From a virus (Duplodnaviria > Caudoviricetes), in the IMG/VR virus record IMGVR_UViG_3300005326_000040, positions 1 to 64,000 of that record: a stretch of DNA of 64,000 nucleotides; one strand, written 5' to 3'. The position numbers were made by a program, and so were the translations under genes. Positions 28,046 through 44,848 of this stretch are shown here, in pieces (positions within the stretch are counted from its first letter, which is position 1; each line of letters starts with the position of its first letter). The notes below the pieces were generated by a model. It had not been told where the DNA came from and searched no databases. It worked only from the letters and a program-made list of their open reading frames with translations.

Positions 28046-28120
28046 GGGGCTGAAGCTCAAAGGAATGAGCAGTTGGCATTAAGCCAACATAGGTTGCGAG
28101 TTCGAATCTCGTCGGCTCCG
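28046..28120 (+). tRNA. tRNA-like gene with TTA anticodon (ochre suppressor-like or degenerate)
   Basis: Acceptor GGGGCTG/CGGCTCC + G; D stem GCTC/GAGC; anticodon stem GTTGG/CCAAC with loop CATTAAG; T arm GCGAG-TTCGAAT-CTCGT. Confidence 0.7.
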
Positions 28121-28149
28121 CAAATATCTAGCATGTTATATATTCCCGC

Positions 28150-41522: not shown

Positions 41523-41610
41523 GCTTGGATGCCCTTAAATTGCCAATAAATTCATATCGTTTCTGAAAGTCCTCCTTTAAGATATATAATTCCCAACAAA
41601 TAGGTGAACA

Positions 41611-42678
41611 ATGTTTGAGCGTTTTTTTCGTAAGGCCGCACTCGATAAGATTATTTCTAAAGCAGCAGCTTCTCTTTCCGAGATTTTAGAAGAAGAGCTT
41701 GAGAAAGCTAGACTTCATAATCAGACAGCTGGAGAAAGCAACCCTCCTGCCAAAGACAAAGAGATTCCCAATAAGCCCGTGTTTTCTAACAATCAACCCG
41801 TTCATATTGCGCTGAATACGCCTGGAACAAGTGTTACTGTTCCTACGAACCCAATTATTGGTGGAACGACTTATACAGATGAAAAGGGGCAAACAAAGTA
41901 CAAAGGAGGCAAGTACAATGTTATGATTTGGATTCGTCCAGGCAGCCTAAAGAATAGCAAAGGAGATATGCGCCCTGTGTTGACGAATTCCATTGTGGTG
42001 GTTGCGGAGGCTGGTGGGATGGGCGATTCTGAGAACACTAAAGCATATGGTAATGCAGCATTTGTTAATAACGCTCTTGCTAAAATTGATTCTCAGATGA
42101 AAGCTCGCTTTGGTGATGTATCGCTTGGTAAGTATGGTCTTGCGGCATTTTCGGGAGGAGCGGGGGCTGTTCGGCAAATTCTCAATGAAACGAGCAACAA
42201 AAAACCAGATGCAGTTATTGTTCTAGATAGTATTCATAATCTAGGAAAGGAAGTTAATCCGAAGAGTATCGAGCCGTTTGTTCAGTATGCTAAGCTGGCA
42301 GCAGAAAATCCTAATTCAGCCAAATTGTTTCTAGCTTACTCGCGAATTACGCCTTCTCGTAAAACAGACAAAGGTTATGAGAACTACGTGTCATCAAGGC
42401 AGAGCGCCGAGTATATAGCCAATCAGGTTGGTGCCAAGCAAACAAACGTCGATAAAGCTTATGGAAACATCAAGCCTTATGCTGTTCACTCCGTTGGTGG
42501 AGTTACTCTTATTGACGCCTATGACCCGGCTCGGGCAAAAGACCCTACCCGAAAGTGGGATGAAGCTAAGAAAGCTTATGTTAGTCCCCTCAAAGGCACA
42601 CTTCAGGAGCAGCATGTTGAGATAGCCAATGCTGCACCAGATATTGTTAGTGAACTCGCTATAGATTGGAACGCCTAA
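41611..42678 (+). CDS. Alpha/beta-hydrolase-fold protein
   Basis: Nucleophile-elbow-like GLAAFSGGAGAVRQIL, DAVIVLDSIH, late His (EQHVE). Confidence 0.6.
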   Translation: MFERFFRKAALDKIISKAAASLSEILEEELEKARLHNQTAGESNPPAKDKEIPNKPVFSNNQPVHIALNTPGTSVTVPTNPIIGGTTYTDEKGQTKYKGGKYNVMIWIRPGSLKNSKGDMRPVLTNSIVVVAEAGGMGDSENTKAYGNAAFVNNALAKIDSQMKARFGDVSLGKYGLAAFSGGAGAVRQILNETSNKKPDAVIVLDSIHNLGKEVNPKSIEPFVQYAKLAAENPNSAKLFLAYSRITPSRKTDKGYENYVSSRQSAEYIANQVGAKQTNVDKAYGNIKPYAVHSVGGVTLIDAYDPARAKDPTRKWDEAKKAYVSPLKGTLQEQHVEIANAAPDIVSELAIDWNA

Positions 42679-43451
42679 TGATTGTACTTAAAGATGTTGT
42701 TTTGACCTTTGTGAAAGAATGGCTTGAGGGACAGAGATCGCTTCATAAGAAGAATAGTTTTATTGTACCCATAACGAACGGAGTAGACTCTGTTGTTTGT
42801 GCATCTTTGATTGCTGATATGCGGGCAAATCAAAAGATATGTTTTGTGAATTTAGGGTTCAACCAAAAGAACGAAGAAGTTTTTAGAGCTTGGATTGAAA
42901 AAAAATATGGCGTTGATAATTTCGTGTTTTACTATCTTCCGTTAGAAGGACTAAATCATCTACGCGATGTTGGTTTATCTGAGTCTGAAGCCCGTAAATC
43001 TTTGATGTCTTCTTGGTTGGACGCTTTAGCAGGTCAACACCAAGGGTTAGTAGTTTCTCCCACTACTCGAAATGAATATCGAATGGTGAAAAGTATTTCT
43101 CGTGATTATTTTGATGTTTACCCTTTGATTGATTTGCACAGAAGTGAAGTTATAGAGTTGGGAGAGTTCATTGGTTTACCGGTTGAACTATTGAAGTCTG
43201 ATAGTAAGTTTGAAAAGGATTTTGGCGTTACTTTCGCGGAGCTTGAATGGCTTGACAGGGAGAATGAAAACACAGGCATTATTTCTTCTCCAACATTACC
43301 GACTCAATCTCGTTACTGGGGAATGTATGATGGGCGCAGAAAAGAAATTATCAGTAAAGTTTATTCTAAAAACAAGAACAATGCCCACATTGTCCTACCT
43401 GAGAAAAAAATGTGTATGATTCGTTCGGCATTACCTGGAGTTACAAGCTAG
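42666..43451 (+). CDS. NAD+ synthetase (NadE)-like protein with degenerate catalytic motifs
   Basis: FIVPITNGVDSVVCASL (cf. VVGLSGGIDSAV), VVSPTTRNE (cf. LGTGNKSE), YPLIDLHRSEVIELGEFIGLP (cf. NPIADLYKTQV..LA..LGVP), DFGVTFAELEWLD. Confidence 0.65.
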   Translation: MERLMIVLKDVVLTFVKEWLEGQRSLHKKNSFIVPITNGVDSVVCASLIADMRANQKICFVNLGFNQKNEEVFRAWIEKKYGVDNFVFYYLPLEGLNHLRDVGLSESEARKSLMSSWLDALAGQHQGLVVSPTTRNEYRMVKSISRDYFDVYPLIDLHRSEVIELGEFIGLPVELLKSDSKFEKDFGVTFAELEWLDRENENTGIISSPTLPTQSRYWGMYDGRRKEIISKVYSKNKNNAHIVLPEKKMCMIRSALPGVTS

Positions 43452-43462
43452 GTTGATATATA

Positions 43463-43680
43463 GTCTTTTGTCGGTGCAAACAAAACCGGCAGGAGACTGA
43501 TTTGAAATGTTCACTGAAAGAAAGAATTATAACACCCGAGGCGCAGGTTCGCGCACCCTGAAGGGGGGTGATATAGTTCAATAAAAAAAGCTTGTCTTGC
43601 TCCCCAGCGAAGCAATCTCAAACACGAATGAGCTTTGATGAGAGATTCTGTGGCAACACATCGCTGGAACGACAGACAAC
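43463..43680 (+). ncRNA. Candidate structured non-coding RNA or regulatory leader
   Basis: 13-bp hairpin 43463-43497; branched stem GAATTATA-CACCC/GGGTG-TATAGTTC 43524-43579; branched domain TTGTCT..CCAGCGA/TCGCTGG..AGACAA with AATCTC/GAGATT and a TGTG-GCAA-CACA tetraloop. Preceded by GATATATAG and followed by a terminator. Confidence 0.5.
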
Positions 43681-43683
43681 CAT

Positions 43684-43720
43684 AAAAAGCCCGGCCGGAA
43701 ACGGTTGGGCTTTTTGCTTT
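43684..43720. terminator. Rho-independent terminator (bidirectional-type)
   Basis: AAAAAGCCCGGCCG-GAAA-CGGTTGGGCTTTTTGCTTT. Confidence 0.85.
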
Positions 43721-43757
43721 CTAGGTTTAGAAGAATTGATATATAGTTGAACCAAGA

Positions 43758-44147
43758 ATGTCTCATTATATCTATGAAGTGACAAGTAAAGAACGTAAGC
43801 AATGGGCTTTCGAAGAAATTAGATGTGCTGCCATAGGTTGGTTCAGTCGTTGTAGTTTTTGGAATGAAGCTTGTAAGGATGTTGAAGGGCGCGGCTTTCA
43901 ACCGGAAACATATGAATATTATTTGGAAATTTACAAGCTTTGTATGCTTTGGGAAATGGATGAACAGATATTTCGTTATATGGATTTTGGAACAGACCGC
44001 ACAGATAACGAAGAAAAAATAGAAATAGGAGCAACAAGGAAAGAAAAAGAAGAAATAGGCATTACTGAACCACCTTCTGTAATTGAATCGCCGTATGATG
44101 GTTCTCAGCTTCGTCGGCGGTACTGGAAAAAGGTTACCGAGATTTAG
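43758..44147 (+). CDS. Hypothetical protein
   Basis: ORF track; GATATATAG 11 nt upstream. Confidence 0.6.
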   Translation: MSHYIYEVTSKERKQWAFEEIRCAAIGWFSRCSFWNEACKDVEGRGFQPETYEYYLEIYKLCMLWEMDEQIFRYMDFGTDRTDNEEKIEIGATRKEKEEIGITEPPSVIESPYDGSQLRRRYWKKVTEI

Positions 44148-44158
44148 ATGGCATATAA

Positions 44159-44782
44159 TTGAATCAATATATGGATGCATGTCTTTTTGGTATAACAGGC
44201 GGGATTGCAAGCGGTAAAACAACCGTATGCAAGATGTTGCAGCAAAAAGGTTTACCCATTATTAGTTTGGAAGTTCTTTTATCAAACACTATTCGTCCAG
44301 GTTCCATTTATCATAAGAAGATAATTGATCTATTGGGAGAAGATCTTTTATCTGTAAATGGCACAATTGATTTGCTAAAATTAAGTTTGCGTATGTGTGA
44401 GGCTGGTTGGATAGCTGAAAATGTTAATGATATTCTTGAGGATGGCATCGACGACAGCATAAAGAAAATTCAATTGATTTTAGCTAATACTAAAACTAGT
44501 ATTGCTGGGATTGAAGGAAAAGAAATTTTAGGCTCAAGGATATCTGCTTATATGAAAAAGGTCGTGCTCGTTACCTGTCCTGATAAAATCAGAATTGAAA
44601 GGTTGGTTGAACGAAGCAGCATGAGTCGTGTAACAGCTATAAAAGCCGTCACAAATGATTCATACTTAAATGCTTTTAGGTTTGCAGATTTTTCAATCAA
44701 CAATTCGGCGGGCATCGATGAGCTTTCGAATAATGTAGAGTGTATGTTAGAAAAACTTCTAAACAGTCTTAAACTGGTTTGA
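44159..44782 (+). CDS. Dephospho-CoA kinase (CoaE)-like P-loop kinase, divergent
   Basis: FGITGGIASGKTTV, VTCPDKIRIERLVERS, ADFSINNSAG; the canonical DAD and HP motifs are not conserved. Confidence 0.75.
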   Translation: MNQYMDACLFGITGGIASGKTTVCKMLQQKGLPIISLEVLLSNTIRPGSIYHKKIIDLLGEDLLSVNGTIDLLKLSLRMCEAGWIAENVNDILEDGIDDSIKKIQLILANTKTSIAGIEGKEILGSRISAYMKKVVLVTCPDKIRIERLVERSSMSRVTAIKAVTNDSYLNAFRFADFSINNSAGIDELSNNVECMLEKLLNSLKLV

Positions 44783-44848
44783 GAAACGATATATAAACCG
44801 ATAACAACCAACTAGGCGTTAACATTCAGAAAAAAGGTAAGAACAAAA

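Follow-up and report, generated by a model that had tools for sequence, protein, structure and literature searches.

The question addressed here was what kind of genetic element occupies the gap between a NadE-like gene and the following gene in a 338-kb groundwater phage. The window, i.e. the whole 64,000-nt stretch of DNA that was analyzed, covers the first 64 kb of an IMG/VR virus record of 338,055 bp and 41.6% G+C. The stretch is contained in one DNA sequencing run, which is labelled as groundwater metagenome and may represent the source sample, and no RNA run is listed. All genes around the unit lie on the + strand. The initial annotation described a compact, structured RNA unit in this gap and offered two readings of it: an independently transcribed novel non-coding RNA, or the mRNA of a translationally gated small peptide. 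Features of the locus are summarized in Table 1.

Table 1. Features distinguished in and around the structured unit (window coordinates, or contig coordinates where prefixed with L003).
Feature	Position	Strand	Remarks
355-aa protein	41611-42678	+	upstream operon with the NadE-like gene
NadE-like protein	42666-43451	+	phrog_11189, E 2e-7
Gap carrying the unit			306 nt between the NadE-like and 129-aa genes
Promoter-like motif GATATATAGT	43455-43464	+	likely -10 hexamer TATAGT, 43459-43464
First hairpin, 15 bp	43461-43499	+	-21.6 kcal/mol; z -5.9; matched by 0 of 200 shuffles
Outer 9 bp of the first hairpin, UAGUCUUUU with AGGAGACUG	43461-43469 with 43491-43499	+	locks the ribosome-binding site
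Inner 6-bp stem-loop, GUCGGU / ACCGGC	43470-43490	+	predicted 5′-terminal hairpin of the RNA from the unit's own promoter
Shine-Dalgarno sequence AGGAG	43491-43495	+	11 nt before the ATG
25-aa ORF MFTERKNYNTRGAGSRTLKGGDIVQ	43507-43584	+	TAA stop codon at 43582-43584
Three-way junction, 20 bp	43524-43579	+	wholly within the ORF; -25.5 kcal/mol; z -4.2; 88% of ensemble
Exact 14-nt block GAAGGGGGGTGATA	43560-43573	+	common to L003; Shine-Dalgarno-like; codes for KGGD
Second branched domain with GCAA loop (GUG-GCAA-CAC hairpin)	43592-43679	+	3′ untranslated part; z -2.4; minimum free energy (MFE) fold 1.7% of ensemble
Intrinsic terminator (A-tract, GC-rich 15-bp stem, GAAA loop, U-tract)	43683-43717	+	-23.8 kcal/mol; z -5.5
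Second copy of the motif	43738-43747	+	before the 129-aa gene
129-aa orphan protein	43758-44147	+	
CoaE-like kinase	44159-44782	+	PF01121, E 1e-19
Lys/Ala-rich ORF, 67 aa	L003:1530-1733		AGGAG 10 nt before the ATG; stands where the window has the 25-aa ORF

The + strand of the unit (43455-43720) folds at -96.7 kcal/mol, compared with -65.7 ± 4.9 kcal/mol for dinucleotide shuffles (z -6.3), and is thus far more stable than its shuffled controls; the - strand of the same region gave z -2.8. Ranked by GC-corrected folding, the unit is 19th of 2,600 genome windows of 260 nt, which makes its folding strength unusual, though not unique. Most of the signal comes from two of the four elements, the 5′ hairpin and the terminator, and the core of the unit without these two gave z -2.7. 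Among the elements described initially, the three-way junction was recovered at the same position and the strong terminator was confirmed. The first hairpin, previously given as 13 bp (43463-43497), proved to be longer at both ends. The second domain is present in the MFE fold, but is weakly supported by both its z-score and its share of the ensemble. The terminator was missed by a simple terminator scan because its U-tract gets counted into the stem.

The strongest GC-corrected folding of the whole genome was found outside the window, in a 6.5-kb island at genome positions 70000-76500 (L035:1000-7500), which supplies 11 of the 13 top windows. This island has a G+C content of 50-66% within the 41.6% genome, contains few long ORFs and matched no Rfam family at gathering score.

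A strong and well-defined + strand fold, bracketed by a promoter-like motif and a terminator, is what would be expected of an autonomous, structured non-coding RNA that acts through its folds or through a G-rich block and carries the 25-codon ORF as a vestige. Such an RNA would be about 250 nt long, or about 135 nt long with a separate start for the second domain. We regard this explanation as tentative and rather doubtful. The unit matched no Rfam family, either at gathering score or at E ≤ 10, apart from a best hit to MicC that lies on the opposite strand, scores 24.6 bits against a cut-off of 90 and is driven by the terminator. No tRNA or tmRNA was predicted within the unit by ARAGORN, so the initial failure to assign it to a known RNA family stands, and no Rfam family matched the corresponding unit of the only relative. 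Searches of the 338-kb genome with blastn-short and nhmmer found no paralogue of any part of the unit, and antisense targets in the phage genome did not exceed chance. An 18-mer of the second domain had matches in 23 bacterial contigs, all of them at chance level and only 18-24 nt long. The weak definition of this domain also argues against a stand-alone RNA. In favor of one, TGATATAGT at 43569-43577 could be an extended -10 element in front of the domain, a minor possibility; against it, TGNTATAGT is not enriched on the gene strand (three copies versus eight).

The putative promoter deserves closer description. The unit begins with GATATATAG (43455-43463), located 3 nt past the NadE-like stop codon, and the same sequence recurs at 43738-43746 ahead of the next gene; both copies had been recognized in the initial annotation. 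The genome contains eight copies of GATATATAG, all on the + strand. For TGATATATA, 11 of the 15 + strand copies are intergenic (P 1e-6, with an intergenic share of 13% of the genome by crude gene calls and with AT-rich motifs being somewhat intergenic-prone anyway). Two tRNA genes outside the window are preceded by GATATATA at a distance of exactly 19 nt from the start of the motif to the mature 5′ end, namely tRNA-Met (motif at 162378, tRNA at 162397) and tRNA-Ile(UAU) (163872 and 163891, respectively), and the copy preceding tRNA-Ile has a perfect TTGACA 17 nt upstream of TATAGT. The copy at 41581 reads GATATATAAT; it comprises TATAAT with a -35-like hexamer and was picked up by a sigma-70 scan. 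On the basis of the TTGACA spacing at tRNA-Ile and the TATAAT at 41581, the -10 element most likely corresponds to motif positions 5-10, TATA[A/G]T. The motif is retained, as GTTGATATATA, at the equivalent place in the relative. The strand specificity of the motif, its intergenic enrichment, its placement before tRNAs and its retention in a second phage point to a promoter function, and the tRNA-linked copies yield a promoter consensus that can be used in this phage.

Four copies of GATATATA(A/G) are found within 3.3 kb (41581, 43455, 43738 and 44788), each before a + strand gene or unit, which suggests that promoters are densely spaced in the 41581-44788 part of the genome. The ATG of the 129-aa gene (43758) is located just 11 nt past the motif copy, so an mRNA started there would be near-leaderless. 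A minus-strand ORF of 214 aa, started with TTG (43578-44222), runs antisense to the 3′ part of the unit and to the 129-aa gene. This ORF is almost certainly spurious, even though a gene caller that goes by length prefers it over the real + strand gene.

The first hairpin of the unit could pair the ribosome-binding site in one RNA and leave it free in another, depending on the 5′ end of the transcript. The segment CUUUU (43465-43469) pairs with AGGAG, and the latter is fully paired in the complete hairpin, in agreement with the occlusion proposed initially. An exact AGGAG is uncommon in this phage: it precedes 33 of the 252 long genes of the genome, at spacings of 5-12 nt. The probability that AGGAG is unpaired was computed for transcripts with varying 5′ ends, all ending at the terminator. 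It was 0.003 for starts from 43300 to 43464, 0.34 for a start at 43466 and 0.52-0.58 for starts from 43468 to 43474. A start near 43470-43472 is predicted from the hexamer TATAGT, and the other hexamers of the motif lead to 43467-43469. Every plausible hexamer thus places the start at 43467-43472, and the predicted gating is robust to the choice of -10 element. As this predicted start falls inside the hairpin, the unit's own transcript would have its ribosome site free, a point missed in the initial annotation, which had seen only the lock.

The longer, occluded transcript should also exist. The terminator scan of 41581-43455 found a single weak 6-bp candidate, located inside the 355-aa gene; there is no other terminator-like site between 41581 and the unit, so RNA reading through from upstream is to be expected. 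To place the predicted gating in a genome-wide context, the ratio of accessibility between long and short transcripts was compared among 23 genome cases combining the motif with an ORF. The unit was the second most extreme, and two comparably extreme cases lie on the minus strand, with ORFs of 23 and 40 aa. According to these folding predictions, gating is specific to the unit rather than general among motif-plus-ORF cases.

Only one relative of the locus was found in all collections searched, a 2,008-bp JGI metagenome contig (L003, refound as L004). The contig encodes, in this order, the 355-aa protein (62% identity), the NadE-like protein (46%), the unit and the CoaE-like protein (52%), while the 129-aa gene is absent. 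A 53% homologue of the 129-aa protein is encoded on another short contig (L002), in a different context and with no unit upstream. The occurrence of the unit at the same syntenic place in both phages indicates that its position is old and conserved.

Other searches yielded little. No DNA match to the locus, near or distant, was found in GenBank phages, in which the NadE-like query retrieved only NadE of cyanophages (about 25% identity) and the 129-aa query retrieved nothing. In IMG/VR, single-protein queries with the NadE-like and CoaE-like proteins and an alignment of the 355-aa protein gave no match, while an alignment of NadE recovered two ordinary NadE genes (26% identity) lacking synteny. 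DNA patterns for the junction, the conserved block and the second domain had no match. Among 5.8 billion protein sequences, one relative each was found for the NadE-like and 129-aa proteins, and none closer than 31% for the CoaE-like protein. Of the terminase relatives, L008, L010 and L011 are short fragments that do not include the locus, and L009 belongs to a 244-kb IMG/VR record with a 51% identical terminase. This phage clade has almost no sampled relatives.

The unit of L003 is composed of GTTGATATATA, the tract AAUUUCC, a 6-bp stem-loop, about 20 extra bases, AGGAGA and an ATG. Its tract pairs with GGAGAUU (UUUCC with GGAGA), just as the tract following the motif pairs with AGGAG in the window, and in both phages the predicted transcription start is at the border between this anti-Shine-Dalgarno tract and the inner stem. 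The inner stem of L003 also has 6 bp (1472-1477 / 1491-1496). Relative to the window, two of its pairs carry double changes (C-G to U-A and G-C to C-G), two are changed on a single side, two are unchanged and none is broken, so that the stem is maintained by compensatory changes; these pairs were compared by hand from separate folds, and two sequences are too few for covariation or coding statistics. An alignment with MAFFT followed by RNAalifold gave no consensus for the two 5′ regions because of the 20-nt insertion in L003. L003 has only a weak gating helix (-11.8 kcal/mol, z -2.1), and its ribosome site is unpaired with a probability of 0.25-0.42 in long leaders, rising to 0.57-0.92 when transcripts start at 1466 or later.

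The 3′ parts of the two units are less alike. Conservation does not extend to the three-way junction: in L003 the same GCGC hairpin forms part of a single long imperfect hairpin. The second domain is absent from L003. At the place of the terminator, the L003 unit has a 12-bp GC-rich hairpin 26 nt past the stop codon, followed by a GATATATAT motif and the CoaE-like gene. The lack of both branched elements in L003 speaks against the non-coding RNA explanation, which is further weakened by the presence, in both phages, of a good AGGAG and ATG at conserved spacing and of a conserved in-frame ORF end. On the other hand, the reduction of the ORF to 25 codons, with its Lys-rich body gone, counts in favor of that explanation.

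The 25-aa ORF starts at the ATG reported initially and reads as described there. Its predicted product is hydrophilic and basic and has no membrane helix. An in-frame alignment is possible between the second half of the ORF and the last codons of the 67-aa L003 ORF (T.RxAxxRxxKGGD). The aligned codons are ACC CGA GGC GCA GGT TCG CGC ACC CTG AAG GGG GGT GAT in the window and ACC GTT CGA CGC GCT GTA ACA CGC GCA TCG AAG GGG GGT GAT in L003, so that the peptides end in the same frame with T.RGAGSRTLKGGD and TVRRAVTRASKGGD, respectively. Substitutions between the aligned codons show no clear third-position bias, and the purine-rich stretch of L003 is also open in a second frame. BLASTP of the 25-aa against the 67-aa sequence returned no alignment, the sequences being too short. 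Neither ORF could be assigned to a known family. The 67-aa ORF matched the histone H1-like HC2 family (PF07382) with E 0.012 and 16.2 bits, below the cut-off of 40, and the likeness is one of composition only. A HMMER search with this ORF against 1.84 billion proteins gave a single match, a repeat protein, which is spurious; the leads from Atlas were all low-scoring.

Type I toxin-antitoxin loci were considered because a small ORF with a sequestered ribosome site could encode a small toxic peptide, with RNA structure preventing its translation. This explanation is scarcely credible for the unit and was rejected: the hydrophilic, basic peptide offers no hydrophobic helix, no minus-strand promoter-like site was found within the unit from which an antisense RNA could start, and the homologous protein of L003 is Lys-rich and 67 aa long.

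About 42 codons, the Lys-rich middle of the L003 ORF, are missing from the ORF of the window. This raises the possibility that the unit is a decaying remnant which has lost most of a small Lys-rich, histone H1-like gene, kept in L003, and whose function is now confined to terminating the upstream operon; the operon starting at 41581 is followed by no strong terminator other than that of the unit. We consider such decay unlikely. The motif, anti-Shine-Dalgarno pairing, inner stem, AGGAG, ATG, frame and ORF end have all been kept even though the neighboring proteins are only 46-62% identical, and the hairpin of the window is stronger, not weaker, than that of L003.

Close to its end, the ORF contains the 14-nt block shared exactly with L003, and CGCGCA just before this block is also common to both units. 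The local alignment of the two units scored 32, compared with 19.1 ± 2.2 for shuffles, and the score was reached by one of 500 shuffles. Exact matches between the neighboring NadE-like genes (786 nt) are no longer than 10 nt, despite several runs of 5-7 invariant residues. The 14-mer spans synonymous sites as well, which suggests a constraint on the nucleotides rather than on the peptide, and it is kept beyond what coding alone predicts. Furthermore, the G-run is paired in both phages with a homologous ACC that lies upstream of the GCGC hairpin. The non-coding RNA explanation gains from both observations, as the block is more conserved than any stretch of the neighboring protein gene.

Several roles for the block were considered. 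It resembles a Shine-Dalgarno sequence, but an ORF downstream of it was rejected, since no start codon lies at a usable distance in either phage, and the block was not found as a ribosome site elsewhere in the genome. Frameshifting by -1 or +1 at G GGG GGU was rejected as well: the shifted frames stop at once or are not conserved. Another possibility, which we think improbable, is that the conserved core of the unit is an RNA element consisting of the GCGC hairpin and the exact block GAAGGGGGGUGAUA, and that the unit is a small structured RNA of a new family, either dual-function or non-coding. About 11 positions of the block GAAGGGGGGUGAUA could then pair with the 16S rRNA 3′ end, and the structured RNA might display or hide this mimic of a ribosome site, e.g. 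in order to hold 30S subunits or to bind a protein. The 14-nt ribosome-site-like block and the strong fold around it are the main point that coding alone leaves unexplained.

The location of the unit between NadE-like and CoaE-like genes, and a branched structure followed by a terminator, are also reminiscent of a cis-acting leader of the downstream genes, i.e. a riboswitch of the NAD/CoA type or a leader-peptide attenuator. We hold this to be very unlikely. No riboswitch family was matched even at E ≤ 10, conservation in L003 does not extend to the aptamer-like parts, and a separate motif copy for the next gene (43738) is present past the terminator; on these grounds, with no covariance-model match, a riboswitch or ribozyme was rejected. 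An attenuator was likewise rejected, because no antiterminator pairing in competition with the terminator is seen in the MFE or the centroid fold, no run of regulatory codons occurs in the ORF, and the next gene carries its own motif.

As the best explanation we propose, at about even chances of being right, that the unit is a promoter-gated small-protein cassette under ribosome-site control of the T4 type. The cassette, inserted between the NadE-like gene and the next genes, would consist of its own promoter, a ribosome site, the 25-codon ORF, a structured 3′ part and the terminator. Its -10 element would lie in the 5′ strand of the 15-bp hairpin, with the ribosome site as the 3′ strand. RNA reading in from the operon of the 355-aa and NadE-like genes would contain the whole hairpin and leave the ORF untranslated. 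In contrast, RNA started near 43470 would lack the pyrimidine tract 43465-43469, retain only the 6-bp stem at its 5′ terminus and expose AGGAG (unpaired with a probability of about 0.55), so that only the dedicated transcript would make the peptide. The 3′ domains may be RNA-stabilizing or lineage-specific additions.

Observed in silico are the structures, the change of accessibility with the 5′ end and the arrangement kept in one relative. Promoter activity, the start site, translation and a function of the peptide are what we infer for the cassette. Of the two readings offered initially, the gated small-peptide mRNA is the better supported, by the L003 ORF, the motif, the Shine-Dalgarno pairing and the in-frame end, although its sub-labels (toxin-like or attenuator) do not fit. 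Counted against the cassette are its single relative, the difference between a 25-aa ORF and a 67-aa Lys-rich ORF that BLASTP does not align, the absence of third-position bias, the second open frame in L003, the synonymous sites within the 14-mer and the weak helix of L003. The model also leaves the three-way junction and the second domain unexplained.

Occlusion of the ribosome-binding site in specific transcripts is known for genes e, soc, 49, I-TevI and segB of phage T4 and for mobE of phage Aeh1 (McPheeters et al. 1986; reviewed PMC3014915, PMC2988022). As in these cases, the ribosome site of the unit is the 3′ strand of a hairpin, and it is almost completely paired in long transcripts. 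The T4 genes have their own promoter in or next to the 5′ strand, and transcripts from it, lacking this strand, can be translated; here the motif overlaps the 5′ strand and the start is predicted inside the helix. The likeness extends, in silico, to the silence of longer upstream transcripts and to the embedding of the gene in an upstream transcription unit. The unit differs from the T4 cases in its location in an unrelated 338-kb groundwater phage, in its motif (GATATATA(R)T, not TATAAATA) and in its product, predicted here from sequence, which is a 25-aa orphan peptide and not a lysozyme, capsid decoration protein or endonuclease.

Phage morons, a concept of Hendrix and co-workers, are independent promoter-gene-terminator units located between conserved genes. 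The unit resembles them in having a predicted promoter of its own, a terminator and conserved neighbors, and in a content that varies between relatives (25 versus 67 aa; second domain present or absent). Unlike morons, it occupies the same place in both relatives and would be old rather than a recent insertion; moreover, the phage is a jumbo phage and probably lytic, and no function of benefit to the host can be named. Phages also produce small stable RNAs and small RNAs derived from 3′ untranslated regions, e.g. the species 1 and 2 RNAs of T4. Like these, the unit is compact (130-250 nt), strongly folded, ended by an intrinsic terminator and located between phage genes. It differs from them in its lack of an Rfam match, its location outside any tRNA cluster, its plausible ORF and a structure that is only partly kept in the one relative.

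If the cassette model is true, the promoter-in-hairpin trick of T4 has evolved, or been maintained, in a huge phage that is only very distantly related and has another promoter motif. An otherwise unannotated phage clade would then gain a working promoter consensus (GATA-TATART) together with a rule for start sites, and a tightly controlled orphan micro-protein would be revealed beside NAD- and CoA-related genes. The practical value is modest, namely an aid to annotation and one more case of a known mechanism.

The ORF of the unit ends with TAA, and ARAGORN predicted a tRNA with the anticodon UUA, which would read TAA, at window positions 28046-28121 (Rfam tRNA score of 41.5 bits). Read-through of the TAA stop by this predicted tRNA was rejected. 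TAA is the commonest stop codon, ending 127 of the 252 long genes, and recoding it opens the genome no more than recoding TAG or TGA does; both results indicate that the phage uses the standard genetic code.
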